A DNA stretch of 60,000 nt from Botryllus schlosseri (taxonomy: Eukaryota): NCBI GenBank assembly GCA_051294905.1, contig CM119372.1:26786001-26846000 (forward strand). Direction: 5' to 3'. The position numbers and the translations under genes are program-made. This document shows, in pieces, positions 1 through 53,437 of the stretch (position 1 is its first letter; every line of letters starts with the position of its first letter). The notes beneath the pieces are model-generated. The model saw only the letters and a list, made by a program, of their open reading frames with translations. It was not told where the DNA came from and did not search any database.

Positions 1-19
1 GCTTATTGAGGTATCTCTA

Positions 20-439
20 ATATTGCTTTCAAAACTATAGTCACTGCAGTGTAATTTATTGACTTGAAGGCATTTTGTATTCCCCTTATCAACAAGAGTT
101 AACGGCACAATAAGAAGCATATAGAAAAAGATACACATGAAATCCAAATTGGCAAAATTTGACGTAACAATGCAATAATAAAAAGGAATGGTAGCTGGCC
201 AAAGTCAGCTGTACCGGTACTCCGGTAGTCATAATAAAGGGGTAAGAGAGAATCAAATTATACAATACACAGAAGACGTTACACAGACAATTAGCGGTAT
301 ATATTATTGGAATATCTAAAGATTGTATACAAACTCTTTCTCCTTCTTATGGTGCCGTTAATTCTTGACAACGGAAACCCGAAAAGCCACTGAGGTAATA
401 AATTCTACTGCAATGAAAGTAGTTCTGAAAGCACTATTC
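20..439. repeat. Imperfect long inverted repeat (about 100-bp arms at 20-118 and 343-439); foldback/MITE-like relic
   Basis: The arm ...gagttaacggcacaataagaag matches the reverse complement of cttcttatggtgccgttaattc, and similarity extends outward to atattgctttcaaaacta / tagttctgaaagcactat. Confidence 0.55.
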
Positions 440-1667
440 AAGTTGAGTACCGCCAGTCACATATTTGAGGTATCTAAGCATTTTTATGACAGCTATTAAG
501 GCTACTAACATTTCAAAATAGGTATTTTGCGAATCACGCAGCCTAATTCTAAAATCGGAATTTGACGAAACTGGACCAGGACGGGGCCCATGCACTTTCG
601 GACCAAAAAGCTATTTTCTCCGTAAGGCTGCAATGACTTTGGTCCGAAAGTGAACGAGCCCCGTAGGTCTGTCAATTACATGTTCCGAAATCATATCGGA
701 AGTGGAAGAAAAAATTGAAAATTTTGACATTTCCGTGGATTTTCGACTTCTCAATCTAAAACTATAAGTCCGTAGACCAGGTTGACAATCTGTCAACGTG
801 TGTGCCGAATAAGTTACTTAAAATTCCTGTGCTCGCGGACTCACCCAGGACCTTCCGCGAACTCGGGGTTGAGAAACACCGCCATAGAAGGTTATAACTG
901 CCAAGAGACTTCTCAAATATGATATTATGACTCGAAACAGGGCAATAATTATGAGATGTAGTAAAAAATATTCGGTTCAATACCTTGTCAAATATAATCA
1001 CTTGCGATGGTGACAAGTGGCATATTATACATTGTTTCGCGATTTTGGCGTCTCGTACCATCTTTAAACCGACTTGAGCTTTGCTCAAAGGTACCTGAGC
1101 ATACATAAGCTAAATCAATACACAATAGCGCGGGCCGCAGGCCATCCAAACTTGTCACTACTTCAAAAGACAAACATTTTTTCTCTGCTGATCGAGAGAA
1201 GAATTCAATTCAGCACTTCTGGGTTGCCATATACCAGGGGTTCTCAACCCGCGGCACGCAGACGTTCCCTTTGCGGCCCGCGACATCTTTCATCATGAAC
1301 GCAATTACTACTGGCACAGTGTTGTTACGTATTAATTTAGCTACTTAGCTCTCTTATCGCATCGTCTCTGTTTCGTTTGATTGCTCATTGTTTGATGTGT
1401 TCTGGTTTCTTGATATATGCTCGAGTTAGATTGTTATTGTTTTGAATCGGTATCCGGCTGGACTCTGCGGTTCAAGAGTAGCCTATCTCGCTGCGTAGTA
1501 AACTTTTAAAGAGTGTTTCACTCACCCTAAATGGTTTAAAGTTTAAACAGAAACAAGAACAAGTAACGGGAAATTACACGGCAAAAACTGGGTTTGTAAC
1601 TCTGCGTGGAACAATGAATTTGCTTTCTCCCCAGTCAACAAAAGTTTGTACATTTAATGCCGAACCA

Positions 1668-3131: not shown

Positions 3132-5411
3132 AAGCAACAACATAAGCGTCAGTATGTATGCCAGAAAGCAACAATGATTCAGGTAGCGATAGGGCTAATA
3201 GCGGTTGTAAGCTGCAGTAGCGAGAGGGTTAATGACGGCAACAACGGGCAAAAGTGGCAAAAGTGCGAAAATTGTATCTTTTGAAGCATCATTTTGACAT
3301 CGAATGCGCATGATACGCCGGGAGATCGCATCCCATTTTGTTGACTGGGCAGATCCAAATGGAGATCCGATGTGTAATATTTGTCGAAGAACAGTTGTCG
3401 TAACGAAGAGTAGATACCGCGACAGTTTCTTCTGGAGTCATACATATTGCCTGATCTTAGAACACGTTGCTAGCTAGGTGTCAAGCCCGGTAATCCATAT
3501 TTCGAGGCTTTCTTAATATCGCAGACGACGTTAAAGACTCATCGTCGAGCATTGCTTAGAATATCGCTAAATCCAAGAAATATGCTAGAGAAGCTGTGAT
3601 TTCAATAAAACTTTAACACACTGGGGAATATTCGTTGTTTCTGGCGCTTAGCAGCAAGGACAACAGCACCTGACAAATTTCGAAGCTACAGTTGTCTGAT
3701 ACAACCGTGGCCAAAAAAGTAACAGCAATGTCAGTCGATCTTTAATCGCATGTCCTGAAACACGTTGCCGCGTAGACTACTTTGGCCGCGTAGACTACTT
3801 TAGCCTCCTAGCATTGGACGAATCCACCGACTCCACAGACATTACATAGCTAATTATCTGGGTGCATTATCAGAGTGGACATATTTGCAGAGGAAATGAT
3901 GGCAGGGCAAATGTGATGAGGAGACCAGACATGGCGTAATCGCGATTAGTAATCGTAATCGATTACGACGATTACAGCATTTTGAAGTAATCGTAATCGC
4001 AATCGATTACATTCGAAAAAAATCCGAAGTAATCGTAATCGTAATCGACTACTTCCCATATCTAATCGATTTGTTTGTGAAAGAACGATTACTTTTTGTT
4101 TGTACAAGGACTATGACATAAACTGAATATTCGTGAACAAGAATGAGATAATATACCACGTTAGCGTTAGCACAAACGTCTGTTTTCAAACGCCACTGAC
4201 TCATTATTACGTCAGAAGTATTAGCTCCGCTCGTCATTGCGTAACAGGTATCCACACATAGTAAACAGACATGCGATGGACATTGTAGTGTGATTGTAAG
4301 AACACCTCCCGTGGTGTATATCAGGTTATCAATACACTACAGAAGCCGCTACCTTGCAGCAGGATATTGATCACCACACTGCGTATAGTTTCAAATAGTA
4401 ACTTATGTATTAATGTTTGGTTGTGCTTAGTTAAACGCAGTTTACCATTGCTGCTTGGCGAGCAGGAGGCCTACGTACGCACGTGCACCTGACGAAGATT
4501 CGGAATTTTGTACTCGTCGAATAAGACATTGCAGTTTCCACAACGAAGCATTACAAATAAACAGCTGCTGATATATATCATAACCTAGCCGTGCTTAGCC
4601 GTTTCTCGTAACAGTAGCTTGCTGTATATGTATTAAGTTGAAGGCAGAATTTTTATGTTAACCATATCTTATTCTCTTATTACTACTTGAAACGGCCGTC
4701 AATCGTTATTTCACAGTTCGTTACTTAGCATTTGGACCTACCGCCATAACCATCCGCTTATATAGCCTGACATGTTAGCGTGGGTTGTAGCTAGAATCAG
4801 CAATTCAGCCAATCCAACCGTTGGTCAATTTTCAAAAGTGAATTTCGTCAATAATATTGGTAATTGCATTATATTACTATTCATTTATAACCTCTCTGAG
4901 CCCCGAGTGTCAGATTTACCTGTAAAGCTGGGGCACGTAATTCATATTCATAGCATCTGGTATGTTGTTATAATTACTGTATGTTGTTAATTCGCGACCT
5001 CCAGTCCGTTGTATAATCACAAGATATTGTACTCGCCCAAACGTAGCAGACTAAAAGAATATCTTTTGTGAGACGCACACACAAATTGTCATGACTTAAT
5101 TCCTTTGTGGATGCGCCGGGTGACATTTGCATTGTGGGACCAGATTGGAAGGACAGGAGTTATTAGTCCCGCCCACTCAGCGCGGCTATTGCCAATGGAC
5201 GAATACCCTAAGTTTCGGCCAAGGTATTGCTTTGGTATGACATCCCGTGGAGTTGCGTGTTGGCCGAAACTGCTTATATGTTTTGATGTGTTGTGGGATC
5301 GTGGCGCGGTAATGACCGGCTACGAAATGCCTGTTTCCATAAAATATGGCCTATGTATGTTTTTTCTTGAGGGGAATAGGTATGCATTTCAAACCCAGCT
5401 ATCTACTGGAG

Positions 5412-6273
5412 CAGGGGTCACCAACTGTTTTGAAACAAAAAGCTACTTCTTGTGTAGTGTGTACTGATTATTGCGACGACCGACGGGTTACCACGTACTC
5501 CCGTCGTTTATCCATGTTCAGTTGGATTTCTTCACTTAGAGTAAGACAATCAGAGCACTGGACCGGGTTTCCGCCCCTTACCAAGAAAACAACGCTCACT
5601 CGCAGGGACTCACACCAGCTCCTGCAAGCTCAGTTGCGTTGCTGCAGTGCGCGCAGAAGCGCCGATCTCCGCGTCTAGACTCGGGGATATTAACTATATA
5701 GATTCCCGTTGAGCCGCCGCGTGGGCGAAGACAAGCAATGCCCCGAGCGACTGCGTTCGTATGTTCCTTGGCGTCGGCCGACCCATGTTCAACTGCTGCT
5801 CATATGAAACGAGCTTCAACTATCAAATCTCTCATTTGGATATTTGCTACAGCGCAGTGGTGGCCATACGAACGGAGGGGCCTGGGCGAGACTTACCGGG
5901 GGTCGCCCTATAAGTATCTATCCGTAACTTAAGGGGGGCTTCGCCCCCCAGACCCGTCTTTCGCATCTGTTATTATTATCAAGGTTTGGCCAGGTGCTGG
6001 ATTCGGCCATGTCTATTTTTCCTTGTGTGCAAAGATAGACGACATTAAACTAAGTAGCAGAGATTTGATGATGATTGACACATCTGTACGGAATCCTATT
6101 CTTGCCTTACACGGATTTCCATGTTTATTCGTTATTATCCTTGAAAAAAGCGCATAATCCAAATAGGGGAGCCCTTCGGCCAGCCCCCCAGGCGACCGCC
6201 CACCTCGCCCAACCCAAAAGCCACCACTACTACAGCGACCGCGACCGCATTTGGTCCGCGTTGGTGACCCCTG
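5412..6273. mobile_element. hAT (Buster-type) MITE nested in A1
   Basis: TIR CAGGGGTCACCAAC; TSD tactggag/tactagag; absent at the equivalent site of A2 and A3. Confidence 0.85.
5855..6229. mobile_element. hAT-like MITE nested in 5412-6273 (fourth nesting level)
   Basis: Ends CAGTGGTGGC...GCCACCACTA; perfect TSD ctacagcg (5847-5854 / 6230-6237). Confidence 0.8.
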
Positions 6274-7614
6274 TACTAGAGATATTTGAATCGCAAAGCT
6301 CGAAAAACATTTACGAGAATTAATTAAATTCTCGAAAATGCTCTATAATATATGTTGGTTTACGAAATACTTTTGAGTCCCCATCGAGCACGCTCCCCAT
6401 TCTATTAAGGAATTTGGGGCGCGGCAGGTAAAGACCTGGCAATAATGCAAATCGTTGGATGCGATAAATCATCCACTATAAAGTTGTGCAATTGATATAT
6501 TATGACGTAATAAGCAAATGACGCATGATGTATGAAGAAAGTTGATATCTCATTAAGCCTTTTCATCGCAATCCTTGTATTGCCTTCCCATAAATCATTT
6601 AAGATTATAGTCCTAAGCAAAACAAATGTAATCGTGAGTAATCGTGATTACTTTTTCAATGTAATCGTAATCGTAATCGACTACTTCCTGATTTTGCTGT
6701 AATCGTAATCGTAATCGTAATCGCGTGATTCCGAAGTAATCGTAATCGCAATTGATTACATTCATAAAGTAATCACCCCATGTCTGGAGGAGACCAGCAA
6801 AAAAACATCAACTTTACAAAACTGACTTTTGTAACTATTGCTGCCGGGCTCCAGCCATGGAAGGAAAGAGGAAGGTTGATTGGTTGCTCAGGAATGACCC
6901 CGAACGCCAGACCTGTTCCCAGATCACTGAGGGATCAAAGTGATAATTGCCTCTGTAACGAAAAAGTTACCATAATTTTATGCTTGCTCGCACACGCATT
7001 GAAACAAAGAGGTCGGTTTTCTGGTGGAAAGGTTTGAAGGTATATATACCGGCGACGAATGCAATGCACGCGCCATGAAGGGTTTTACTTGCGTCGCTGG
7101 AAGATACATATTCTCACACAAAAAAGCAGTAACTGCAAACTTACGAACGCTGTCCATTAATGCTGTAGAATGCATAAAAATGTACTAAATCCTCGTATAC
7201 GACTGGTAAATAGGCTACAGTAGCCTAAATTCAAGAGTGTGGTAGCCCATAAATGGCAATAATGCTCTGCGGCTCGCGGCGTCTTTTGCTGTTAAAATGT
7301 GGCCCCTTATACAAGGGAAGTTGAGAACCCCTGCCATATAGGCTAATGGGCTTCGCGAGAGTGGCATTCTACAATATTTGTCCTAATGTAGTATACTCGA
7401 AGTTCAACGTTGCAAGCCACTTCGATTTAAATCCTTGTCTCTTGGATTCAAAAGACATATTATACCTTGCAAATGCCATGACCTTCTAAGGAAAAATCAT
7501 ATTTATCCAAAAATGTGTGCCTCTCATAGGTGCTTGACAGACAGACCGTAATAGCATCAACTAAGAGCTACGCGAATTCACTCAGTTACTCATAATCCAC
7601 AGACATCTTCTGAT

Positions 7615-9327: not shown

Positions 9328-9552
9328 GTGATAACCTTCCATGGTATCAAACTGTGCGTTGGTATTGCAAGCATTCTGGTGGCTCTTTATAATATTTTTT
9401 ATTATGACGATAAGGAGGGCGCGAAATGTTTCACTGTCATCAAGTGGCATGTGTAAAAAAAGTTCGAGAACCACTGTTTTATGACAACATTTGCCTCCCA
9501 AAGCAGTGATCAATCCTGTGGAACTAATCCAACGCGCGAACAAAACGCACCT

Positions 9553-9605
9553 CTGACGAGTGTCACCCGAAAATATTCGTGCTCTATTCAATATGAATGT
9601 ACTAT
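9553..9605 (+). mobile_element. Diverged fragment of the Penelope-like hammerhead repeat
   Basis: ctgacgagtgtcacccgaaaatattcgtgctc..caatatgaatgtactat matches the 17273-17345 unit; stem I is degraded. Confidence 0.7.
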
Positions 9606-10285
9606 ACAGAACGCATTGGCAATTATCTCACCATGAATAATTATTATCTTATTCGCACCACATACGCCATTATCTTGCGGCACCTTAGAGCTAGAGGGTG
9701 GTTCGTATCTGGTTCGTGTGAACGCGAACCTTTTTGAAAGGTTCTGTGTGATCGCGAACGTGAACCTATGACGTCACATGACGTCATATTTCTAATTCCA
9801 ACCATCTATTTCCGTGAAATCGACGACTCGGGCCATATTATGCCACAATGCTGAAGTGCATGCTGGCTTTTTAAACGTCACCCAATGTATCAACTGGAAC
9901 AATCAAATGCGGTATCAATTCCACAAAATCAATATCTTCCGTTGCTAATCTAAAATTTCGACGACGACTGGGTTAGACCGCATAGACAGGGTTGCGATAC
10001 CGTCCTTATTTCTAAGATTTGTCCTTATTTTGAAGAGCCACGTCTTAAAAAACTCAACTGTCCTTATTTCTAAGATTTGTCCTTATTTTTGACTTGCGTC
10101 CTTATTTTGTCTTAATTTCAACCACTACAGAACTTCGATCATTTCCCTCTGGTATATCTCTGTTGCATAATATTCTAAAATTATGCTTTTATGTCCAGAG
10201 TTTATGACTTCATAAATGAAAGGAACTCCCGTGGCGTACGCGTATCTGGATTTAACTTCGAAGTGGTGCGATAGCTTAGCAAGGG

Positions 10286-12403
10286 TAGGGTTACCATCAG
10301 ACATGGGGTAATCGCGATTAGTAATCGTAATCGATTACGACGATTACAGAATTTTCGAGTAATCGTAATCGCAATCGATTACATTCGAGAAAATTACGAA
10401 GTAATCGTAATCGTAATCGACTACTTCCCATATTTAATCGATTTCTTTGTGAAAGAACGATTACTTTTTATTTGTACAAGACTATGACATAAACTGAACA
10501 TTGGTGAACAAGGAAGAGGGATTATGCCAGTTAGTGATAGCACAAACGTCAGATTTCCAAATGCCACTGCTCATTATTACGTCAGAAGTGGCCAATTAGC
10601 TTGCTCGTCATTGCGTAGGAAGTATCCAATTATCCTACTAGTGAATAGAGATATTCTATGTACATTGTACATTAGTGTGAGTGTAAGAACACTCACCGTG
10701 CTGTAGATAAGGATAAGCAGCAGGATCACCACTTCGCCTAGTTTAATATAGTAACTTTTGTAATGATGTTTTGTTATGCTTAGTTAAACGCAGTTTGACC
10801 GTTGCTGCTTGGCGAGCAGTAGGCCTATGTAGTACAAACGTACACCGGACAATGGTTTGCAATTTTGTGGCCTAATCGTCATATAAAACATTACGGTTTC
10901 CACGACGAAGCATTAAAAATCAACAGCTGCTGATTTATATCATAACCGAGCCGTTTCTCGTATAATGACCCCTTGCATTACATTATCTGTATCAAGTTGC
11001 AGGCAGAATTTGAAGTACACTTTCTCTTATTCTCATATGGTTCTGCTTGAAACGGGCGCCAAACGTTATTTCACAATTCTTTACCCAACATTTGGACCTG
11101 CCGTCATAGCCATCGGCTTATATACAATGTTATCGTGGCTTGTAGCTAGAATCTGGACAAAAACATTAAATCGTCCCCCACTCCAAACGTTGGTCTTGGG
11201 CCCCCATAGGGTAATTAATTTTCAAGTTGAAGATTTAATTCCGTCAATAATATTGGTAATTTTATTATATTACGATTCATTTTTAATTCTCTCTCAGCTT
11301 CCGATGGTCAGATTTACCTGAAGAGCTGGGAGCACGTAATTCATATTTATAACATCTGGTATGTTGTAATAATTACTATTTAGGGTATGTTGTTAATTCG
11401 TGACCTCCGGTCTTTTATATAATCGAAAGATATTGTTGTGGCCAAAATGTAGCAGACTAAAAGAAATACTTGCGTAAGACGCACCTAAACGCCTGTTACT
11501 ATAAATTATGCGTGATTTTTTTTCTTAAGTAGGAGACGTAGCCTATGTATTCCAAAATCAAGCTATCTAGAGACATTCAAATCGCAAAGCTCGAAGATCA
11601 TTTCCAAGTTAATGAAATCTCTCGAAAATACTCTATAATTTATGTTGGTTTACGAAATACTTTTGAGTAGCCTACCCTCCAACCACGCTCCATATCCTAT
11701 TGGGGAATTTGGGGTGAGGCAGTTATGGACCTGGCAAGAATGCAAAACGTTGTGTGCGATAAACCGTCCTCTACAAAATGGGCAATGGGTACTTTATGAC
11801 GTAACGAGCAAATGTCGAATCTTTTTTAAATAAAGTTGTTATCTCATTAGGCCTTTCCAGCGCAATCCATATATTGTCATCCAATATAACTTCTAAGAAG
11901 CAAAATAAATGTAATCGTGAGTAATCGTGATTACTTTTCGAATGTAATCGTAATCGTAATCGACTACTTCCTGATTTTGCTGTAATCGTAATCGTAATCG
12001 TAATCGCGTCATTCAGAAGTAATCGTAATCGCAATCGATTACATTCACGAAGTAATCACCCCATGTCTGGTTACCATACGTCCTCTCTTAATAGGATTTG
12101 TCCTCTTTTTTGAAAGTGCCCTCTGACGACGCCTTTATGTCATCTTCTTTGAGATTTCGCCTCTTTTTTGAGAATTTCGGTTAAATATAGGGAAAATACG
12201 ACTGAGACACAGTAAATGACCACTGAAGTAACGCTCCGGCGGCTATTTCGGGAGCTGAGCCGGAAAGTTGACCTTATTTATTCAGTCAACCGACCACGAA
12301 GTGGGAAAAATTTATCATTTTTCAGGGCTTTCCTTCGGTATTGCAAGTCTGAAAATTTTGAAAAAGTGTCCTCTTTTCAGATTTCCGAAATATGGTAACC
12401 CTA
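10286..12403 (+). mobile_element. hAT MITE family B, split by insertion of A2 into its left TIR
   Basis: TAGGGTTACCAT[A2]...ATGGTAACCCTA; TSD agcaaggg/tgctaggg (6/8); homolog at 7615-8047. Confidence 0.8.
10298..12069 (+). mobile_element. Non-autonomous hAT element, (GTAATC)n family, copy A2
   Basis: TIR CAGACATGGGGT; perfect TSD gttaccat (10290-10297 / 12070-12077). Confidence 0.93.
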
Positions 12404-14812: not shown

Positions 14813-16713
14813 CAGACATGGGGTAATCGCGATTAGTAATCGTAATCGATTACGAGGATTACAGCATTTTCAAGTAATCGTAATCGCAATTGATTACATT
14901 CGAAAAAAATTCCGAAGTAATCGTAATCGTAATCGACTACTTCCTATATTTAATCGATTTCTTTGTGAAAGAACGATTACTTTCTATTTGTACAATGACT
15001 ATGACATAAACTGAACATTCGTGAACAAGGAAGATATATTAAATTATACCAGATTAGTGATCAGATAGCACAAACGTTCAAGTTTCAAACGCCACTGCTC
15101 ATTATTACGTCAGAAGTATTAGTTTTGCTCGTCATTGCGTCAAAAGTATCCAGGCCACACATGGTAAATGGATATTCGAAGTACACATTGTACATCGTAT
15201 TGTGATTGTAAGAACACCCGCCGTGCCGTAGGCTATATCACTCCAGCTCCGGACGCCACTACCTCGCAGGAGGATATTAATTACCACTCAGCGTATAGTT
15301 TCATATAGTAGCTTATGTCATTTTTTGAAGTTTGGTTATACTGAGTGAAACGCAGTCTGATCGTTGATGGTTGACCAGTAGTAGACCTATGTATAGTACG
15401 TACGTACGTCGTACGTTCACCGAACAACGATTTAAAATTTTGTACCCGTCGAATAATACGGTACGGTTCCCACAACGAAGCTTAAAAAATCAACAGCTGC
15501 TTATATGTATCATAACCGAGCCTTTATTTGCCGTTTCTCGTACCGGCAGCTTGCAGTATCTGTAGTAAGTTGAACGCAAAATTTTATATTCACTTTAGCT
15601 TATTCTCATACGACTCTACTTGAAACGGGCGCCAATCGTTTTTTCACAATTCTTAACTCAACATTTGGACCTGTCGCCATAGCCACCCGCTTATATACCA
15701 ATATTAGCGTGGATTGTAGCTAGAATCAGGACCAAAACAGCAATTCGCCCTAACATCAATCGTTGGTCTTGGGTCCCCAGGGTGGTCAATTTTCAAGTTG
15801 AATATTGAATTTCGTCGATAATGTTGGTATTTGCACTATTATATTACTGTTGATTTTTAATCCTATATCAGCCCCCGATGGTCAGATTTACTTGTATACC
15901 TCGGGGCACGTAATTCATAATTATAACATCTGGTATGTTGTTATATTTACTTCATTGTTTGTTGTAAATTCGTGACCTCCGGTATGTTATATAATCAAAA
16001 GATATTGTATTCTTTACTCCTCTGTGGGTGCCCAGGGTGGCATTTTCTTTGTGGGCTCAGATTTGAAGGACAGGACTATTTCGGTCAAGGTATTTCTTTA
16101 ATAGCACACTTCGTGGAGTCGCATGTTAGCCGAAACTGCATGTCTTTTGGTGTGTCGTGGCGTGGTAATTACTGGTACCGAAATGCTTATTCCTATAAAT
16201 TATGCATGCTTTTTTTCTTGAAGGGAAGAGGCATGCATTTCAAAATCAAGGTATTTAAAGACTTTAAGTATTTAAATCGCGAAGCTCAAAGAAAATTTTC
16301 GAGGTAATTAAATCTTTCGAAAATACTTTAAAATTTATGTTGGTTTACTTTTGAGTCCCCTTCGGGCTCGCTTCCACCCTGTTGGGCAGTTTGGGTGCGG
16401 CAGTTACGGACCTGGCAAGAATGCAAATCGTTGGGTGCGATAAATCGTCCCCCATAACGTTGGGCAATGAGTACATTATGATGTAACAATCAAATGACGC
16501 ATCTTTTGTAAAGAAAATTGTTATCTCATCGCAATCCTTATATTTTCTTCTAATACATCTTCAAAGATTAGTTCTAAGAAGCAAAATAAATGTAATCGTG
16601 AGTTATCGTGATTACTTTTCCAATGTAATCGTAATCGACTACTTCCTGATGTTGCTGTAATCGTAATCGTAATCGCAATCGATTGCATTCATGAAGTAAT
16701 CATCCCATGTCTG
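14813..16713 (+). mobile_element. Non-autonomous hAT element, (GTAATC)n family, copy A3
   Basis: Both CAGACATGGG TIRs and full internal homology to A1/A2; no matching TSD (catgactg vs atcaatag). Confidence 0.9.
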
Positions 16714-17209
16714 ATCAATAGCTCATGTAGCAAATATTCGTGCCGATATCTAGTAAAGATTATGATATTTCTGTTGATTTTCGGCGATGCTGACTGCAGT
16801 CAGATTTCTATTGCGATCTACGATATATATCAGGACTTCGAAAAGTATATTATCAATTTGCAGTACTCACGAGGTGCAGTATCTGTTTCTCCGGCGTAAT
16901 TGAAATAGCGTGACGCAACGTAGTGTTTTGGAAGCCGTCAGTTTATTGTGCAAAGCGGATGAACAATACTTAAAATCAGCTGAATTTTTGGAACGTCATA
17001 CTACCACTTTCTATGGCAGTGGTTCTCATCCCGGGGTCCAAGGATCCCTTGGGAGTCCTTGATTAAGCATTTGGGAGTCCTTGGTTTCCTTGATGAATTT
17101 TGGGAAATAGCGACAAGCGATTTTTTTTACTGTCATTTCTCTCTTTAAAGAGCTTCTTGGAGGTACAGAACTTCAATATACAATTGAATAGTATATTCAT
17201 ATTGAAATG

Positions 17210-17253
17210 AACCCGAATATTTTCGGCTGACACTCGTCAGGGGTAATCGTCAG
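17210..17253 (-). ncRNA. Minimal type I hammerhead ribozyme (intact core)
   Basis: ACCC-CUGACGA-G(UGUCAGC)C-GAAA-AUAU-UC-GGGU: complete core, 4-bp stem I, palindromic stem III AAUAUU. Confidence 0.75.
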
Positions 17254-17272
17254 GAACTATTCTCAACTAGTT

Positions 17273-17316
17273 GCTGACGATTACCCGTGACGAGTGTCAG
17301 CCGAAAATATTCGGGT
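17273..17316 (+). ncRNA. Hammerhead ribozyme copy with a core mutation (C3 to G), probably inactive
   Basis: gctgacgattaccc-GTGACGA-gtgtcagcc-GAAA-atat-TC-gggt. Confidence 0.65.
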
Positions 17317-17980
17317 TCATTTCAATATGAATATACTATTCAATTCTCTCTTTAAATGCACATGTGTCAAGCTCGAGCACGCCAAAATAAACTGTGAACG
17401 GTATCGGTTTGCGTTAAAATAAATCTATGCTGCTGCCTACAATGTGTACACTGTATATTGACGTCACACTAAAATACTACTTCTACCACAACGCATGTCT
17501 ATTACAGTCAGATCAGCTCTATTACATGATAGAAAGCATGCGGTTTAGTTTCGTAGAGGCAATAACAGCTACCTATTTAAATTTGCCCAAGTTGAATAAG
17601 TTTCGGTCCTACAATTTTACTCACTTTAAAAAAATTCGTAGCTCCGGGAGAAACCGCTTGGCGAAGGGTGACCAAGTGCTAAAAGTGCGAGGTTCAACTC
17701 CCGCTACGAACATCTGGCCATTTTCCTCTGCTGTGCAGATACAACAGGTCAGTCCTCGGCCAATGTTGTCTTTATTTATATATTTTCGCGCAATTTTTTT
17801 TTATAATTTCTTTATTTGAGTATTATGTCGATGGTGTATTCAACTTTTGTTCTTTATTTCGTTTTGAAGTTCTTTCTTTCTTCTTCTTCAACAACAACAA
17901 TTTTACACAGTGCAGTAGTTGAGTAGCATAATTGCTAAAACTGTCAATAGTATGCAGTGGTGACTTTTGGGATGGGCGAG

Positions 17981-23309: not shown

Positions 23310-23800
23310 ACACCGAACCCACGACGTTTACCTATGTAAAATCACCACTTTCACTTGGTAGTCCGTCGTTTACCTGAGTAAACATATCATTTTCCTTTGG
23401 ATTTCTGACGTTTACCCAGAGTGACAATACATTTCGACTTGGAAATACATTTTCCCCCCGAGCAACAAACCATGTTCACTTGGAAATATCTTTTTTCCCT
23501 GAGTAAGAAACCATTTTCACTTGGAAATATATTTTTTCCCTGGGTAACAAACTTTTTCACTTGGAAATATATTTTTTCCCTGAGCAACAAACCATTTTCA
23601 CTCGGAAATATATTTTTTCCCTCGGCAACAAATCATTTTCACTTGGCGGTCCGTCGTTTACCTGGGTAAAATATCATTTTCCTTTGGCGATCTGGCGTTT
23701 ACCCAGTGTAACAATACATTTTTCACTTGGCCATCTAGCTTTTCCTAGAGTAACGAAACCATTTTCATTTGGAAATCTGACAAACACACCTGGCAATTTG
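23310..23800. repeat. Tandem array of about 11 units of ~41 bp
   Basis: Consensus accattttcacttggaaatatattttttccctgagcaacaa, with variant units carrying gtccgtcgtttacctgggtaa. Confidence 0.9.
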
Positions 23801-31708: not shown

Positions 31709-32229
31709 CTCGTAGGGGAAGGCCAATTGAAACAACCATACCCTTGCACATGATTCTCTGTGTACTTGCCATCATTACGTCACCACGACCAAATTATGTC
31801 TATATTTTTAATTTGGTTGACTGTACTTACTGACGTTCCTTCCTTAAGTAGTCAGTCGAAGAGTTTCGAGCAGAATAAATTCGTCATTATGAACATAATA
31901 TTTGTGATATTGGAGTATTAAACATACGGAATCTTGGCCAGTTTCTGACACACGGTGTTAAAATTGATACACCTGATGTCTGTGTAATCCTATTGCATAG
32001 GAAATTATAGTTTATAATAATCGTTTTTTATCTAATCATAAAAATGCCCCACAGCATTGAGACCAGGGCTTAGGAGCAGCCGTTAATTTGCATTGCTCCA
32101 GCTCCGGCTCCGGAGCCTTCTTCTATCATACAATAGCTCCGGCTCCAGCTCCGGAGCCGCATTATTACCACTGCTCCGGCTCCAGCTCCGGCTCCGGCTC
32201 TGAAAATTATCGAAGGTGTCTGTCTATAT

Positions 32230-39088: not shown

Positions 39089-40415
39089 GTCCACGCGTCA
39101 GGAAGCCAGCAAGCAAAACAGCAAGCAAAATCGAATCTAATGTCGCCCTGATCTCGGGAAAATGGTTTGGGCTGTGACAGGAAGGACAACCAGCTTAGAT
39201 ATCCAACCAGACTATAACGCGTATCGCAAATTACCGTGATCAAAGAATCCAATGCAAATTTATTTTTGTTTTTATTGAACAGTTTTGGCGCTTATGGCCT
39301 ATTCGATCATTTGCTTTCCGATCATGAATTTTGTATCGTTCAGGTCTTTTACTCCTGGTCCGCTTTTCCGGACGGCTTCTAGTCACGCCTGCATTCATCA
39401 TCTTCCACTCTCTCTCCCAAGCGTCCTCGTCAGTGTCTGTTGCTGTCGATCTTCGAAGCCTCGACTTCGCTTATTGTATCTGGGCTTTTCGTATGACACC
39501 GCATATGCATCGAGATCGGCGATGAGCCAAGATCCAATACAAGTGTATGCGGTCGCATTCGCATACATCTTCTGAATAGATAGGTTCTAGTCTACCTATG
39601 AATGAAATGTACATTTCAGAAGTATAGTAAATTAAACAATTTACTAGAGCTTCCACTTTCTTGATTGTGTTGAGTTGATTCAGTGCGACGGTACCATAAA
39701 CTTGTTACAGTGATCCCAAATCGTATCCATGGAAACGTGAATCGTGATTCGATAAGTGTATGAACCAAATTCGAAGTGAGTATGCAGCTAAATCAGAGGC
39801 GGGCAACTTCTCCAGTGGATGGCCTGATATGGGCTAATAAAGATCCATTAATCGCCTATTTATCCACCTATACAAGGAGCAAATGTAGAAAATGTAAATT
39901 TTAGTTGTAAAGCATAGAAACCAAAAACTCTGCTTGATGAATTTAATAACGTAATGTAGCTTACTTCAATAGCTGTTGAAGTCAATGAGACATCTAAGGT
40001 CGATTAAAGTTGTCGACAAATTTTTTGATATCTGGCCGCATGTCACAAGAAGAAACCCTCAGTAAGATTGCACCTGAATACATTTGAACGCAATCATTTT
40101 TTGTTAATATTCATGGTCGAAAATGTTTGATCGAAAATGTAAGTAGATCCGAGCCGAACAAGTAGATAGTATCATGACCATCTTTGTCACGTTGAAACAA
40201 AATAGTGTCGCAGTAGATGCATGGTGTAGTAGCGACTTACGAATATATTGTATAACAATTGCTCATTATATCCCTGAGTTCTCATTGCAAATTAACATTG
40301 GACAAAATCTGTCAAATGTCAAAATTTGTTTTCGCGCTTGGCACGAAATATTTGCCAACGAACAATATTTGCAACATGTTTCCAGGAATAGCACATTTGA
40401 ATAAAATATTCATAA

Positions 40416-40463
40416 ATATTCCCGAAGCTTTTCGGCTGACCCTCGTCAGGGGATATCGTCAGC
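40416..40463 (-). ncRNA. Minimal type I hammerhead ribozyme in the 3' region of a Penelope-like element
   Basis: AUAUCCC-CUGACGA-GG(GUCAG)CC-GAAA-AGCU-UC-GGGAAUAU; palindromic stem III AAGCUU; about 135 nt downstream of the ORF stop. Confidence 0.8.
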
Positions 40464-40598
40464 AATAATGCGAGAATGCGAATAACTATGTTTTAACAAC
40501 AATGTATATCGCTGATGATGACGTCACACAGAAAATATACAAAGTTGAAAAAACGAGAGGACTGTAGCGTTGGCACGGAGATAGCGAAGCAAAACAAG

Positions 40599-40806
40599 TT
40601 AATGCGCGATTTTTAAATGATAGACAAATTCTTTCTGTTGGCATAGACTAGGTTCACTCATAGTGATGATGATGGACTCAAGAACAGACAAATGAAATGA
40701 ATTGCGACCCTTAGCCAATACAGAGAACATGTCCTCATAATAATTAGTAGCACAAGTATGATTTTCGAATAACTGTTTGCCGATAGAAGACTTTGACCCA
40801 TGGCCT
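40599..40806 (-). pseudogene. C-terminus of a Penelope-like retroelement ORF (tail of the GIY-YIG endonuclease domain)
   Basis: My translation: SKSSIGKQLFENHTCATNYYEDMFSVLAKGRNSFHLSVLESIIITMSEPSLCQQKEFVYHLKIAH*, matching the PLE pattern S.I..HL....F.IL......L..LE...I....P.LC.Q. Confidence 0.8.
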
Positions 40807-41152
40807 GGTTATGTTCGAGAACAAGCGGATTGTTATGCTGTGATTTCGAAAATGATTAACGAAATATACTTGTATCTGAGAGCTACAAAATCGTAAGAAA
40901 ATTTCTTCATCGTATCATAATGGATGATGCTGTTGAGTGTTGTGGTTCACAACCTCGCATGAACGTGATATGATCTGGGTTGCTTTGTTTGGAATACACT
41001 CATGTTAAGATTAAAAACTGGGTGCAGCACTAAATTCAATGTGAGCAAAGATCTCTATAATTTCCAGTTGATTTACTAGTCACATAAGGCATTGGGTCAT
41101 AGCTATAACCATTGTGATGTCATCAGAGTTGGTCAAAGTACTTACCATAGGT

Positions 41153-42866: not shown

Positions 42867-45800
42867 TTATAACTCTCGACCGGTTAGTAGGGCATATTCT
42901 ATCAGAGTGCCCATGGTAAGAGGATTGACCAGTAATGTTTCCAAGCGGAAGGGAACGGTGTCTCTAATTTGGTCCCGGAGATACTGTCGGGGGCCTTCAT
43001 ACTTGGTGCAGTGAATGACGTAATGCTCAACGGTTTCAGGTACGCCGCAGCTTTCGCACTTTCCAGTATCGTGAATCCCTAATCTATGCAGATGAGAGTT
43101 CAGTTTGCAATGACCGGTTTGCTGACGGATGAGTATAGCGTAGGCTCTTCTTGGCAATGATAGCACCGGGGCATGGAAACTCGTGGTTCGGAACAGATTT
43201 GGGTAAAAGGAATTTTCCGCATTGCTGAAAAACTCTGATTTCCATTTGGAATCGCAATGCTCTTGAATGAGGGACTTGCATTCCCTCGCTGTAATCTCAA
43301 TGGTGCTGCTGTGAGTATGCTCGGATGCCGCTTGCCTTGCCAGCTTGTCAGCGGTCTCGTTACCGCTGATCCCCTTGTGACTTGGGACCCATATTAAGGT
43401 GACTGAGATAGCATAAGAGGATAATGCACCACATCGTGCGGCAATATCCCGAATTAAATCGTTTTCTGTGTGGCTATTTTCGATGGCCACCAAGGCACTA
43501 AGACTGTCCGAGAGAATAAGCAGATCAGCTGATTGTGGGCACTGCTCGACTGCCCAAGACAGTCCTTCTCGAATTTCAATCAACTCCGCAGAAAAAATCG
43601 ACAGTCTTCTGTCTAACGTGATCTTACCTACTTCCCCTAACTCCTGGACATAATATGCTGCGCCACACGTATCCTCTGATTTCGACCCATCTGTAAATAT
43701 CTTCGTATGATTTTGAAAATGATGACTGATATATTCCTTGCATTCGATCTGAATTTGGAGAGGATTCTCCATTTGCTGTGTGAGTAAACACAGATGAGTA
43801 TCCACTACACAGTTTACAACCGACCAGGGAGCTATTGGACACGTTTTTCGAATGGTGATTTCCTCGAAAATTGGCAGTCGTGACAGCATGTTGAAAGTAC
43901 AGAAGAGCGAAGAATCCGGGCCATGAGTCTTCAATAATGTGGGAGCAAATGTGTTCATTGTTGGCGGCAATTTTACATCTTGCTACTGCGCATGCGCGCA
44001 AGTGACGTATGTGTACCGGTAATTCCCTGCACGAATGCAAAAGTGCGTGGATGGGAGTGCTTCCCATTGCCCCACTGCATATTCTCAATGCCTTGTTTTG
44101 AATTTTTTGAATTGCTTTCAGTACATATTTTGGAGATAACAGATATGCTTCGAAGCCATATTCGACGACGGAGCGGATAAGTGCTCTATACAATGAGAGA
44201 AGACTTGATTTTGAGGCGCCCCATTGTGTGCCGCACAGCAGGCGAAGTACATTTATACGTCTGTTGCATTTATCTACTACCGAATCTGTGTGCTGTCTGT
44301 AAGATAGTCGTGAATCAAAGATGATTCCTAGGTATCTATATTCTTTTTTAACAGGAAGCAGACAGTTCGACACTCTCAGTTGAACTGCTGGTGTTTTACG
44401 TTTCCTGGTGAATAAAACTGCTGCTGATTTTTCGACATTTATTCTGAAACCCCACTCGTCACACCATTCAGATACTTCGTTCAGGGATTTCTGTACGTCA
44501 GACAATAGCGTGTCTGTAACCAGCCCGGATTCCCAGAGACAGATATCATCTGCGAATAGATTGATATTTGAAGTAATGTTTTCTGGCAGGTCGTTCATCA
44601 TGACCGTGAAGAGTAGGGGGGACAGCACGCTGCCCTGTGGAGTACCGTTATCTATGGAAAAAATTCGTGATAATGTTGACCCTAGTCGGACTTGCATGGT
44701 TTGTTCAGACAGGAAAGAATCAATCCATTTAATGATATTTCCAGAAAGTCCTATTTTCACCAGTTTTGCTAACATCCCGCCGCGCCACATGCGATCGTAG
44801 GCCTTCTCTAAATCCAGGAAGACGGCAACTGCAGATCGCCTATTCCACAGGGCCTTGTAAACGTCGTCATGGAGTGACAAAATAGAATCTCGGGTCGATC
44901 GATTGGTGCGAAAGCCGCTCTGTGCCGGATGAAGCAATTTGTTCATTTCGAGCCACCAACGCATTCGATTACATATCATGCGTTCCATAACTTTGCAAAA
45001 GTTACTTGTGAGTGAAATCGGTCTATACGAGGCTGGATTACTTGATTCTTTATCGGACTTTAGAAGTGGTATCACTATCGAGTGTTTCCAGCTTTTTGGG
45101 CACTTCCCTTCTAACCACAATGAATTGATACATCTTAGGATATCTTTTTTGCATTCGGTCGACAGGTTGGTGAACATGGGATAACACAGTTTATCGTGTC
45201 CTGGAGACGAGCTTTTTCTGTGTTTGAGTACCCGTACTAATTCTATAAAAGAAAAGGGGGAGTTAATCTCCTCGTGATCGCCAGAATCATTAAATGCTGG
45301 GACGATTATTTCGGATCTCACGACTTCGTGTCGACGCCTAGTCGGTTCATCGATAGTGTCCCTGCCACTTATTGAGGCAAAATGCGCACCCATGGCGTCT
45401 GCCTTCATTCTGTTGTCGGAGATAACGACGCCGTTCGACTTAATGGTATGGATGCGATTCCAGGATACGTTGCCGCTCATGGAGCGTATTGCTCGCCAGA
45501 CCCGAGTTAGTTTGGTGTTGCTGTCACAAGAAGTACAGAAATCTTGCCAATGGGATTTTTTTGCTTGCAACACAACCTTTCTTGCTTCTGCCCGACGTCG
45601 CTTGAACTCTATAACATCTTCTGTGCGGAAGCTGCGTTTCATTTTGCAATATGCGGCTCGTTTTAGTCTGACTGCCTTCGAGCATTCCTTGGTCCACCAT
45701 GGTATGCTCTGTTTCGCTACTGGTCTTGTTAGAGGTATGCTGTCAGATGCTGACGATATTATTGCGTCGGTAATAGCCTCCACCGTATATCGACCGGACT

Positions 45801-46575
45801 CCTCAATCATTGCAAAGTTTGTGCCACTGACCTTTCGGAATTTTTCCCACCTGGCCTTGTGAAGCGACCACGATGTGAAATTGCCTTCTGTCGGATCGGA
45901 TCTGGGCACATTTACTGTCGTTATAATAATGTAGTGGTCACTACCCAGTAGGTGGTCCGTTACCGTTGTTGACATCTTGTGGGCTACATCTTTTGATGCA
46001 AGGGTCAAGTCAAGTAATGATGTAGAACCAGGATTTGGCATCGCAATATTAAGTCTCGTCGGATTCTGGGTGTTCAACACTACCGAGTCCTTTGAACTAA
46101 TAGCGAAGTGAATATGGCGTCCGTTTCCGTTCATACGTTGGCTTCCCCACGTAGGATGATGTGCGTTGAAATCGCCAAGCACGATCGTTTTCGAGTCGCA
46201 TTTTGTAAACAACCGCTTTACCATGGAACGCGATATATGACGATTCGGCGGGATGTAAACGTTTACAATTGTCAGGCCCACTGTTTGGATTGCCTGTGCC
46301 TCAATGGGCCCCATATCGGCAAAGTCGACTTCAGTAAAAGTTAAGCCTTGTTTTATGAAAAGACACAGCCCACCTCCATGAATGTTGCGGTCTTTGCGCA
46401 CTAGAGTGTAGTTGGCTATTTTTGGTTTATACTTGGATACGAGATGTGTTTCCTGGAGTGCGATTAATTCCGGTTTCTTTGTATTTGATGCAATGAAATG
46501 TTTCAGTTCGTTAATTTTTCTGTAGATGCCTCGACAATTCCATTGTAAAAATTTTAATTGGAACTTTCCATTTCG
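42867..46575 (-). pseudogene. LINE ORF2: AP endonuclease, reverse transcriptase, RNase H, CCHC; one frameshift near 43920
   Basis: APE motifs LQWNCRG, LQET, GDFNAHH..WG, SDH; RT motifs YRPISLTS, FLDLEKAYD, GTPQGSVLSP, FADD; RNase H motifs FTDGS, AEL, SDS, WVPSH.GI.GNE.AD; C-terminal CESC..ETVEH...HC. The frame is open upstream of the track's GTG start. Confidence 0.95.
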
Positions 46576-46659
46576 TTATCTATGTGACTATTTATCCTTG
46601 TTAAGTCCATCGCGGCCTCTGACGGGTGGTTTTGTGAACCTGATGGGCTTGGAATGAGC

Positions 46660-48008
46660 TTATGTTGCGGATGTGCGCTGGTCGCTGTTTGATTTGTGAC
46701 GGAATGGCTTGGCGCATTTTGGGGCATGGTTCATGTTATTACGACCGACAGAATTATTCATCGTTGAAAGAGATGTACCTAATCTTGTTTCTACCCTGTG
46801 AACATGGTCGGAGACTTGTCTACTTGGTTTGTTGACCGGTGGCGTAACTGAGGAGTCTCGCCGAGTCTGTTCCTCTGCGGAAAAGAGTGAAAGTGAAAGT
46901 GCCGGAGTGTGGAAGTTTATCCCGAGGTTCTGTCCGGCTGATCTTGCTATTGTCTCAATATCTAAACCTTTACCCTCTGCGATAGACGTCAATGTGCCTC
47001 GAATGACTTCAGCGACGAAGCTGAAGAATTCCATGGCCGGAATAGAGATCATTTCCGAGCTTGGATCACCGACTCTTTGTGTATCACCACTAGGAATGAT
47101 GTTGCGACTCGGCAACGACGGAAATTCAGTTTCTGATACGATGTTCGGTCCGGACTGTTGCTGTTGCAACGTTCGTTTCGCGTCCCAGTAATTAATGTTC
47201 GAGTTAGTCATTATTGTGTTAAGTTTGATCTCTTGTCGGTATCGTGTGCAACCTGCGTAACCCGCGGATATCGTGTGCAACCTGCGTAACCCGCGGAGTG
47301 TGAACCTCCACAATTAACACAATGTGGTTCGTTTTGACAATCTTTGTACATATGTCGCTTACCGCATTTTGTACATCTCTGAGCGCTGCGACAAAATTTT
47401 GCTCTATGTCCAAATCGGTTGCAATTGAAGCAACGGACAGGCGGAGGATTGTATTTTCTGATTCGAAAATTCATGAAGCCTAACTTGACGACTGTTGGAA
47501 GGATGGTCGATGCGAAGCACATCAGTACCGATCTGCTGTCGGTTATCCCTGAATTCGTTCGATATGTGAATCTACGTACAAATGAAACTTTCTGATCGGA
47601 CAACTCGTTTTTAATTTCTTCAGCCGTCATTTCTAATGGCACATCCGAGATTACACCCCGAACTTCAACCGCTCTTGTCCTGTATAACTCAACTTTCACA
47701 AAGATAGGCTTTTCTTGTGTGCCCAGATTGTCACAAGCTAGTAACTTTGCCAGTTGTGTACTATTATTGCATTCTACACATAGTGAACCCGAGGGCAAAA
47801 AGCGAATATCCTTATACGGAATTCCAAGCAAATTGTGAAGGTTTCTGTTTATGACCAAGGGGCTGCAATTTCGAAGTGCCTTTTCCGTGCCTGTTATAAC
47901 GACCGAAAGCGTTGGCGCGGATTGACCAATATTAGACAAACCTTCAGGTTGAGGTCCCCCCAGGGCCTCGTCGGCGGAGCGCTTATGCGCTCCACCTTGA
48001 ACTGACAT
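46660..48008 (-). pseudogene. LINE ORF1 (gag-like nucleic-acid-binding protein, three zinc knuckles), frameshifted by a 29-bp duplication
   Basis: CX2CX4HX4C, CX2CX3HX4C and CX2CX3HX6C; perfect tandem duplication 47240-47268 / 47269-47297; the SAGYAGCTRY peptide occurs in both ORF-track pieces. Confidence 0.93.
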
Positions 48009-48142
48009 TATCTATGCTCTCCCTACCAACAGTAATACTAACTGCACGGACGTAAGAGTTCAGTTGGCTACACGTAGCAGCTCTCGATGTGAAGTATCTC
48101 GCTAAGGCTTGATTACCCCGATGAACGATCTGCAATTTACGC

Positions 48143-48832: not shown

Positions 48833-50303
48833 CAGTGGTTCTCAACCTTTTTGGTTCCGCGGACCCCTTTAGACCGTCACAGATCCTCGCGGACCCCCTC
48901 AAACTTTAGTTCAATTTTGATTCTATTGTGGTGCAACCTTGATCTGTTTTGTGCAAATATGAACTGCAGGCTTGTGATAAACAGGAAACTAATGATTTTT
49001 CTTGAACATAACATCATACTATTTCTGTAGAAATTGGTAGACTTTTATTATTTCAAAGCTAATTTTGCTGCTGTATTTCTTGAAGTACGTGGTCGTGTCT
49101 TGAAAATCCGCGTCTTCGTTTTGATATGAACGAGGAGTACCGAAAACCATTTTCGCAAAGATAGAGGGAGGCTAATGCAATATTAAAGTATAACGCTTCC
49201 GACGATACTATTGGTGTGAACGCAACATTTATGGCACCAAAATGAGGAAACATGTATTTTATGAACATATCACGCCCAGCATCTAGCGCAGGGACAGGCA
49301 ACATACGGACCGCGGGTCGGATTCGACCGGCGACGGCATTTTGATCGGCCCGCAGAGAGTTTCTACCGTCAAAGTGAAATCCTAATCTAAAAGTATAGAT
49401 GAATTTCATGCGCAAAAGAATGGATCCAAGTTTTCCAACCTGAGAAAGACTGTCATGAAGCTACTTGTTCTGTTCGGGTTTACGTATATATTTACGACCA
49501 AACATTTTCGTTCATAAACAATTGAACATCAACAAGACAAGGCTGCATACCAATATAACTGGTGATATGAATTTCAGGGTTGGAGCGTAATGCTTTGATA
49601 GCAACGAAAAACTCTTCGTTCATCAAAAAACCAGTCTTGTCGATAGGGCATCCGCAATAACTATCTGATAGCCCAGCTTTACAAGTAGGTATATCATTGT
49701 CCAATTTATGACGAGTGTCAGCCGAAAAAATATTCGGGTTCATTTCAACATGAATGTACTATGCAATTGTATATTAAAGTTCTGTACCTCCAAGAATCTG
49801 TTCAAATAGTGGTTATGTATATCACAGGATAAAATGGATTTCTTGGCGAGGTTTCAATCCCTGCATTGGGAAAAATTAGGGAAATGCTTCGGAAATTTTT
49901 ATTCAAACGACTGTTCACTAATTTGATGAGACTGACAACTCAAAATCGAGAAGGTTTCGCAGACATTACGAAGTCACCCTGATTGACGTTATTATCTCCA
50001 TATTTTTATTTTTTCCACAAAACGTCTCTAAACAGTAATATGCTTCTATCAGAAGGTTACTGGAAAATTTGCAGTGAGAATGAATTTCCATACCATGATA
50101 GTTCATGTCAGACGATTATTATGATGATATGAGTCATGAGGTTTTAGCAGTTGAGGTGCGAAACTGCCTCATGCGTTCTCAAATTAAAAAATGAAATAAA
50201 AATTAGGTCATCAACCATTTTAAAAATTTAGAGGTCTCGCGGACCCCCTGAAATTGCTTCGCGGACCCCTAGGGGTCCGGGGACCCCCGGTCGAGAACCG
50301 CTG
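48833..50303 (+). mobile_element. hAT (Buster-type) MITE, GCGGACCCC family, copy 1
   Basis: TIR CAG(T/C)GGTTCTC; perfect TSD ttttagag; the empty site is visible in the host's other copy (~2755-2762). Confidence 0.92.
49709..49797 (+). mobile_element. 5'-truncated Penelope-like hammerhead unit
   Basis: tgacgagtgtcagccgaaaaaatattcgggttcatttcaa...tctgtacctccaagaa. Confidence 0.75.
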
Positions 50304-52251: not shown

Positions 52252-52806
52252 AACACATGCACATGCCTTTTAAATCTATCATAACAACGATGAACAGCTG
52301 ATTTGATTAGCTTTTCAAAGCCATTAGAAACGTTGCCGCACCAAGTTTCAATCCTGTTGGTAGTTAGTAGTTGGTAATTCGCATCGTAGTTTGTTTCGTA
52401 CGTTGGTAATGCGCGTGACCCTCCGCCAAAGTCATAATCCGTAGATCATCAGTCGACGTCTGAAGTGCTGACAAAGGAGATTCGGAGAATTAAACATAAC
52501 GCGGTTAATATGTACTCTGACCACGTCTGTAACTAATGCAGCTGTGGGGATCACAGTCTTCGGTTTTTCGTTAGTACTGGGTTCAATCCGCCGATCATTC
52601 CGATATATTTATATAAACAAAATCTTTCGTCGATACTTTTGAAACCAATGTGGTTAGGTCACGAGGTATAAATTAAAATTCTCTGGATTTTAGAGCCGGA
52701 CCCTGCAACTCTCAAATCATCCGAAAGGTTTTTATGATGCTCACAAGCTTTTCGCTGCACGTGTTATGGACACGTGTGTATTTTCGAGTAGTCACAAAAT
52801 GATTCT

Positions 52807-53066
52807 TTTTCGGCTGACACTCGTCAGGGGTAATCGTCAGCAACTAGTAGAGAATTGGAAAGAACATTGTCGATATACTCGTCAGAGGTAATCGTCAGCA
52901 GCTAGTAGAGAATTGGAAAGAACATTGTTGATATACAATGTGCTTTCCAATTCACTATTAAGTTGCTGACGATTACTCCTGACGAGTGTCAGCCGAAAAT
53001 ATTCGGGTTCATTTCAATATGAAAATACTATTCAATTGTATATTGAACTTCTGTACCTCCAATAAG
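52807..53066. mobile_element. Penelope-like terminal-repeat insertion: two partial minus-strand units plus one plus-strand unit
   Basis: About 58-bp tandem duplication (~52819-52936) followed by an inverted full unit. Confidence 0.8.
52965..53008 (+). ncRNA. Minimal type I hammerhead ribozyme (intact core)
   Basis: GCUGAC..ACUC-CUGACGA-G(UGUCAGC)C-GAAA-AUAU-UC-GGGU; stem I is kept through a U-G wobble. Confidence 0.72.
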
Positions 53067-53437
53067 ATATTTAAAATGGTCCTTATTTTCATGGATCCAA
53101 GGATTCACTCAACACTTGCGATGCTAAATCGAATCCATTGCTGTCGACATTGTCGACAACATCGTTGTACAATATTCGTCATATTATTAGCGAACTATAT
53201 GATGATGATTACTATTTGTGAAGGGGAGATTTGCGGCCACTGACTACTCGTTACCACGTTGATGTTAAATATTGCAATTTGTTCACTTTTTGTGATACAC
53301 ATTTAGAGTTGGCAATCTCGGTCTCGTCGGAATGTCTCGACGGAGGATATATGTCTTTCATCAAATATGGTAACGGTTCCTGCATTTTCAGAATTGTTCG
53401 GTAAGAACTAACTATTTAGTACCACGTGATCGACACC

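Follow-up and report, generated by a model that had tools for sequence, protein, structure and literature searches.

Hammerhead ribozymes of Penelope-like elements (PLEs) have been described as slow, free of tertiary contacts and of debated role (PMC4209133, PMC6155905, PMC11167929). A 2017 review finds them usually without tertiary interactions (PMC6155905), those assayed to date are reported to cleave poorly (PMC4209133, PMC11167929), and in the anole PLE cleavage was reported to be dispensable for insertion in vitro (PMC11167929). A vestigial, palindromic helix III marks the form that needs a dimer (PMC4209133, PMC7229834), and PLE insertions are known for 5′ truncation, an inverted arm and a tail of 30–40 bp (PMC8557442, PMC11167929). 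Compensatory mutation has shown a 6-bp knot to be essential in a hammerhead with a 1-bp stem II (PMC3088659), and crystallography shows for the PK hammerhead, with a rate of 16 per minute, that the knot helix fills the role of helix II (PMC11300833). The knotted hammerhead design is already known from these two reports; what may be undescribed is a PLE-borne form of it that lacks helix IV. Here we analyze such ribozymes in a stretch of 60,000 nucleotides from Botryllus schlosseri, hereafter the window, and in the genome to which it belongs.

Penelope-like elements and their truncated copies

The preliminary description of the window had taken the repeated unit for a non-coding, non-autonomous and possibly undescribed family, a view that did not survive. 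The last ~57 nt of the unit encode the first 19 residues of an element protein (17200–17144, 100% in tblastn), the variant at 40416 carries the C-terminus of an endonuclease at 40602–40790, and the copies correspond to truncated ends of autonomous RT-endonuclease PLEs, intact tandems of which are present in the genome. At locus L068 the full unit of 2,692 bp stands head to tail, with one ORF for an RT-endonuclease of 848 aa; the overlap of 809 bp is 100% identical at a period of 2,692, and hammerheads lie at 225 and 2917. The hammerhead comes after the stop codon and ahead of the next AUG: 109 nt separate the last ORF codon from C3, and the AUG follows 14 nt after the predicted cut, the distance seen in family A, with 3–25 nt in sister families. 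Tandem periods of 2,692 (family A), 2,700 (C) and 2,778 (H) represent a pseudo-LTR (pLTR)-forming arrangement. Among the matches listed in a protein search, 19 of 63 lie in stop-free frames of 857–860 codons, several of them in tandem. When the best 30 family A loci were screened for upstream RT/endonuclease frames of at least 120 aa, nine had one; such frames also precede at least six of 30 family B loci. The 3′ end of the best 30 family A loci is fixed, partly as a result of the choice of query, and their 5′ end is variable.

All three full proteins examined score above the Pfam cut-off for RVT_1. The 848-aa protein has the DKG and YVDD motifs, and the nearest Atlas clusters to the RT protein (scores of 0.97–0.98) are eukaryotic RT proteins. 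GIY-YIG remained below the cut-off in two of the three (E of 0.006 and 0.014) and was absent from the third. The endonuclease region does conserve Y, CxC, YVG-R-T, R, H and E residues, which we take to match those of PLE endonucleases. Inspection of the element proteins revealed no Cys cluster between RT and endonuclease. An AlphaFold model of the endonuclease (pLDDT 51) was too poor for use, and a PDB sequence search with the element protein gave one weak RT match. Judged by how their domains are ordered and by the lack of the zinc finger that Neptune and Nematis have in the linker, the elements look most like the Penelope/Poseidon clade; the element itself is an ordinary PLE. The proteins of five knot families are 55–81% identical to one another. 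In a tree of the endonuclease ends, restricted to the families of the present analysis, two of six branches are well supported, so knot pair types are counted below without a tree.

Most insertions are 5′-truncated, and inverted arms occur at 16 of the 30 loci. Target duplications of at least 10 bp (10–14 bp) flank 14 of these 16 inverted pairs, where a random control gave 1.5% for 7 bp or more, and the arm ends differ by 27–42 nt in 15 of the 16, which corresponds to a tail on one arm. The window holds the same structure at 17150–17343, with its 13-bp target duplication and tail asymmetry (Table 1). Two copies had been proposed at 17150–17345; both hammerheads are indeed there, but as head-to-head inverted arms of a single insertion, and the first pseudoknot pair has been lost from the minus arm. 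We consider it likely, from the sequences compared, that the window copies are 5′-truncated and partly inverted 3′ ends (pLTR plus tail) of autonomous, endonuclease-bearing PLEs.

Table 1. PLE-derived features of the window
Feature	Position	Strand	Remark
Old palindromic PLE end, F type	17..464		Arms ~21–125 and 335–451; broken ribozyme; inside larger repeat
Decayed family A fragment	9549..9608	+	Core kept; no upstream hexamer or stem I
Left target-site duplication	17137..17149		13 bp; inner bases overlap element end by microhomology
PLE tail arm, ORF codons 1–19 of family A protein	17144..17200	-	AUG at 17200; tblastn 19/19 identical
Type I hammerhead, family A	17211..17254	-	Core intact; 5/6 knot pairs; C3 at 17240
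Predicted cut of minus-arm hammerhead	between 17215 and 17214	-	
Inverted 5′ arm, hammerhead	17273..17316	+	6/6 knot pairs; C3 changed to G (17287)
Inverted-arm end	17327..17345	+	At ORF nucleotide ~19, 38 nt short of other arm
Right target-site duplication	17344..17356		13 bp
Decayed hammerhead end of related family, D/I type	31813..31902	+	Absent from preliminary description
Family B PLE 3′ end	40388..40849	-	91% over 464 bp to locus L050; endonuclease C-terminus 40602–40790, 3′ UTR, intact knotted hammerhead 40420–40463, AUG 40413
PLE insertion	49561..49808		Inverted ORF fragment 49561–49707 (-) joined to 5′-truncated hammerhead and tail 49709–49808 (+)
Inverted 5′ arm	52807..52936	-	Partial hammerheads 52807–52845 and 52877–52903 in 58-bp tandem duplication
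Family A 3′ end	52924..53075	+	Complete knotted hammerhead 52965–53008, AUG 53019, tail

Where three copies had been counted (52807–53066), one is complete, with a U–G wobble in stem I, and two are partial, one ending before the cleavage site (52807–52845) and the other before GAAA (52877–52903). The copy at 9553 keeps its core, with stem I and the upstream hexamer gone, and that at 49709 is a hammerhead part with two extra A and with everything 5′ of U4 missing. The variant at 40416 belongs to a sister family (B), with the endonuclease sequence still attached. Among the seven named places, all six knot pairs, the core and stem I are kept together only at 40420–40463 and 52965–53008. A covariance model built in this analysis added three decayed copies (50–125, 335–409 and 31813–31902). 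A further family is represented by PLE endonuclease fragments at 51189–51429 and 52260–52433 on the minus strand, decayed and broken up by other sequence.

The window contains further repeats. A near-complete LINE, presumably of the I group, occupies 42867–48011 on the minus strand; its ORF1 has three Cys/His knuckles (47211–48011), its ORF2 an apurinic endonuclease and an RT (43624–46575), with RNase H in a shifted frame (42867–43982). A composite repeat with GTAATC-rich subterminal arrays is present in three copies (3926–6787, 10298–12070 and 14813–16713), and a minisatellite of about nine copies of 41–42 bp spans 23388–23772. Short ends beginning CAG-GGTTCTCAAC, at 1230, 27495, 27846, 37850, 48828, 54390 and 58739, resemble the termini of hAT-type miniature transposons.

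The hammerhead and its pseudoknot

The core CUGACGA...GAAA...UC, stem I ACCC/GGGU and the palindrome AAUAUU, all reported before, are found in the window letters, as are the variant with UCCC/GGGA and AAGCUU (40420–40463, minus strand) and the complementarity of GCUGAC and GUCAGC. That the motif is real is borne out by the 495.5-Mb genome, where the core pattern has 7,020 matches and a reversed control pattern 7; the exact loop of the window families is present in 5,622 of the 7,020. The order CUGANGA, GAAA and UH around a three-way junction with a conserved core is that of a type I hammerhead, and the earlier assignment to those of Penelope elements was right, helix III being palindromic and of the dimer type.

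We aligned 14 family representatives (alignment A3), two of them from another organism, known from a metagenome. Over the whole structure 98.6% of 210 cells (15 pairs) are paired, with two-sided changes in ten pairs. Stem I, of 4 bp, is 98% paired; stem II is one invariant G–C pair, G10.1–C11.1; C3–G8 covaries with U3–A8; and the palindrome of helix III covaries as well (AAUAUU, AAGCUU and, in family F, an interrupted palindrome). All catalytic core positions are kept across families, the apt level of comparison, as inserted copies decay neutrally and core-versus-flank conservation across copies is an ill-posed measure.

Six base pairs join loop II (G-N-hexamer-C) to a hexamer that lies 14–9 nt upstream of C3. 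The window variants share identical hexamers, so the pseudoknot proposed for them shows no covariation there; it does across the families, where 83 of 84 knot cells pair and five of the six pairs have two-sided changes. Degenerate genome patterns gave at least seven hexamer pairs among the matches listed: GCUGAC/GUCAGC, GCCGAC/GUUGGC, ACUGGC/GCCAGU, ACUAAC/GUUAGU, ACUGAC/GUCAGU, UGUGCC/GGCACA and UCUGAC/GUCAGA. One of the pairs comes from the PLE of the other organism, and the register is constant in all knot families. None of 500 shuffles matched the knot statistic, a result that is not to be read as a probability, since the rows are related and were picked by eye, which inflates shuffle tests; slid registers pair at 14–32%. 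As a minimum that needs no tree, there are at least seven two-sided knot pair types beyond the first, all in one fixed register. As shown by covariation, the knot is maintained by compensatory change in these PLE hammerheads, and a vestigial stem II of 1 bp replaced by a 6-bp knot, as had been suggested, is what the alignment supports.

The metagenome scan yielded two loci from 85 candidate stretches, both on contigs of one metagenome, and these count as one outside lineage. Next to a metagenome PLE copy (L091, minus strand, 3835–4755) lie integrase-like frames that we take to resemble a Maverick/Polinton or Ginger integrase. Excluded from the alignment were the GAAACC copies (L094, L125–L137) and surplus members of families already represented; isolated decayed copies (L073, L074, L076–L083, L086–L088, L090, L107, L111, L118), among which L107 has a mismatched knot, seen once; and pattern matches in which a UH downstream or stem I is missing (L084, L096, L097, L099–L104, L108–L110, L112, L121–L124). 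In this last set, L121–L123, L097/L102/L110, L096/L099 and L101/L103 are repeats present in multiple copies; they have a GAAA box and either CUGAUGA or UUGANAA, show no clear cleavage triplet or stem I, and may be other ribozyme-like motifs or chance ones. In the linker from knot to stem I (GNUN), columns 11 and 13 are G and U in all 14 rows; the base that precedes the hexamer can pair with this G in 12 of the 14, which may be one more tertiary contact.

One variant with a broken knot, marked by GAAACC, has about 95 copies. In all 14 copies read U16.1 and the palindrome are lost; no PLE ORF is present in the single tandem unit read; and all 40 scored matches have in common more than 700 bp that extend well past the PLE end. 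We interpret the variant as a single dead insertion that was amplified as a passenger in a larger, unrelated repeat, and do not count it as a counter-example to the knot. In the window this dead palindromic end (17–464), with an 11-bp duplication, lies within 1–864, inside the larger dispersed repeat, whose ~95 copies also form tandem arrays on contigs C101 and C208.

These ribozymes fall in a blind spot. A Rfam scan of the window found no hammerhead at E up to 1, its only matches being chance miRNA matches on the palindrome, and single loci matched RF03152 and RF00163 only, always below threshold, with a best score of 22 bits where the RF03152 cut-off is 56. The minimum-energy monomer folds of ViennaRNA, a type of fold that cannot hold knots, are not hammerheads. 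Some 7,000 copies in one genome are thus missed at Rfam's usual thresholds and lie outside the published descriptor (PMC4209133), and ribozymes of this sort may have been overlooked in PLE clades from which hammerheads are reported to be absent.

Proposed dimer cleavage and possible roles

In the fold that we propose, the loop hexamer, directly 5′ of C11.1, would form with the upstream hexamer a helix stacked on the single G10.1–C11.1 pair, giving a composite helix II of seven pairs that would do the job of helix II without helix IV and equal in length the helix II that is usual in PLE hammerheads. A bridge of one base across six pairs is compatible with pseudoknot geometry. Helix III is one A–U pair closing a palindrome, so a dimer is expected for efficient cleavage, and it seems fairly probable that two copies, in adjacent tandem units or in two RNAs, must join through a 6-bp intermolecular helix III. 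RNA read through a tandem would then fold two copies together and cut out a unit-length RNA starting 14 nt before the AUG. Tentatively, we suggest this trimming of tandem read-through transcripts as the main role of the ribozyme. Preservation of the knot by repeated compensatory change points, at the level of sequence, to selection for a properly docked ribozyme that is probably active; the variants that occur naturally among the families amount to a ready set of compensatory mutants, and a motif of fewer than 50 nt is cheap to test.

In samples of about 3–6% of each of four raw-read RNA-seq runs, we found no pile-up of read ends at the predicted cut site. Reads occur on both strands, are concentrated on the short end and continue into unlike sequence in 65–97% of cases; they are mostly host transcripts containing dead copies. 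Read joints from 2692 to 1 reflect only the chosen unit start and look the same for tandem and circular RNA. Insertion ends lie 33–71 nt downstream of the predicted cut, so the template copied at that end would have been uncut or re-ligated, which fits both the circular-RNA model (PMC4209133) and uncut RNA as the main substrate (PMC11167929).

The position of the cut, 3–25 nt before the AUG, could instead serve translation, with an uncapped 5′-OH RNA being translated, or else the mRNA being uncapped and silenced, and dimer formation would sense RNA that is tandem or abundant. The short distance in every family examined agrees with this, as do the amplification of the ribozyme-dead copy solely as a passenger and the cap-independent translation promoted by self-cleavage in fungal viruses and, as reported, likewise by HDV-like ribozymes of other retrotransposons (PMC13725137). 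However, the 3-nt leader of the metagenome copies is very short, and the anole PLE is described as cut inside its ORF, so the position is not universal (PMC11167929); we rate a translational role as less likely, though as a serious alternative. A more specific scheme, which we regard as a long shot, would make the ribozyme a dimer-gated switch: the smallest natural pseudoknot hammerhead, carried by a clade of animal PLEs, without helix IV and with one-pair helices II and III, with the speed of the PK hammerhead once two copies pair, cutting a few bases before the start codon and licensing cap-independent translation or circularisation of unit-length RNA from tandem elements only. If true, it would explain the need of PLEs for tandem copies and offer a tractable test of what their ribozymes are for.

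Alternatively, the knotted fold could serve the element's own RT-endonuclease as a signal for binding or folding, with cleavage slow, protein-assisted or incidental. In the available account of the anole PLE, the hammerhead was cleaved only when the element protein was added and core mutants were still inserted (PMC11167929), and the insertions described here run past the cut site. Conservation across families of the catalytic core and of the C3–G8/U3–A8 pair is, on the other hand, what selection on catalysis would produce, and we doubt that a signal function is the explanation.

That the hexamers are complementary by chance, or as a by-product of, for example, inversions, is very improbable: only 6 bp are involved, representatives were chosen by eye and the one 95-copy variant has a broken knot, but the count of pair types in a fixed register and the dead state of that variant speak against it. 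Least credible of all, and already largely refuted, is a non-autonomous, non-coding ribozyme element of retrozyme or SINE type moved in trans, for which one could cite the shortness of most genomic copies, the 21 of 30 family A loci without an upstream frame of at least 120 aa and a 2026 preprint deriving animal retrozymes from PLE pLTRs (10.64898/2026.07.22.740005), but against which stand 5′ ends that vary continuously beside fixed 3′ ends, upstream sequence running straight into endonuclease and RT, ORF codons 1–19 in the unit's own 3′ part, and a tandem period of 2.7 kb, no short tandem array of the unit having been seen.

Comparison with described hammerheads

A 2017 collection by Lünse et al. 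is said to hold very many short-stem-III variants and to find pseudoknots before stem I common. Full-text searches of the literature turned up no account of PLE hammerheads with a knot, although Lünse 2017, Weinberg 2015 and Perreault Dataset S1 may already show it; the text available from PMC5737381, PMC6466107, PMC6765202 and PMC11702757 adds nothing on a knot in PLE hammerheads.

As elements, the B. schlosseri PLEs resemble the described endonuclease-bearing (EN+) PLEs (Craig 2021, PMC8557442; Frangieh 2024, PMC11167929) in their single RT-endonuclease ORF, pLTR tandems, 5′ truncation, inverted arm, 30–40-bp tail from the ORF start and hammerhead at the junction of pLTR and ORF. They differ from the anole PLE, whose cut is reported 26 bp inside the ORF (PMC11167929), in being cut upstream of the AUG by a knotted ribozyme. 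With the minimal PLE hammerheads (Cervera and De la Peña 2014, PMC4209133) they share type I, a short helix I, a palindromic helix III, the U3–A8 core variant and thousands of solitary truncated copies. In 56 of 56 aligned examples of that study (Fig. S3), however, helix II is an ordinary one of at least 3 pairs, and its descriptor demands 3–7 bp, which the one invariant pair of the B. schlosseri ribozyme fails; unlike those forms, the latter combines a single pair with a 6-bp knot, and its A9 and G10.1 have no additional base between them. Non-LTR retrozymes (Cervera and De la Peña 2020, PMC7229834) also carry type I hammerheads, and one axolotl family is reported with a 1-bp helix III, a palindromic tetraloop and poor cleavage as a monomer, but these are non-coding tandem repeats of ~170–400 nt, whereas the unit described here is coding and 2.7 kb long. 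The non-circularly permuted hammerheads of Eckert 2023 (PMC10085705) have the orders SGC, CSG or GCS, and ours is C-G-S, that of an ordinary type I.

The nearest likenesses are to knotted hammerheads. Knots between the regions of stem I and stem II are reported in ~40% of hammerheads by Perreault 2011 (PMC3088659), where the case tested was a type II metagenomic ribozyme. The Rfam consensus RF03152 (RAGATH-1 hammerhead), probably the same as the PK hammerhead, likewise has a 1-bp stem II with a 7-nt loop. In the PK hammerhead (Zhan 2024, PMC11300833, PDB 8YDC), as in B. schlosseri, helix II gives way to a 6-bp pseudoknot that sits on a single G10.1–C11.1 pair. Its 5-bp helix IV is lacking here, and a 4-nt GNUN linker takes the place of its A-rich triplex strand; the four candidate pairs for a helix IV are 51.8% paired, and only the one next to the knot holds (12 of 14 rows). 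The strings Penelope, eukaryot and retrotranspos occur 0 times in that paper; the B. schlosseri ribozyme has a dimer-type palindrome as helix III and lies in a eukaryotic retrotransposon. It probably works like the PK hammerhead, but falls outside that class on helix IV and the A-rich linker.
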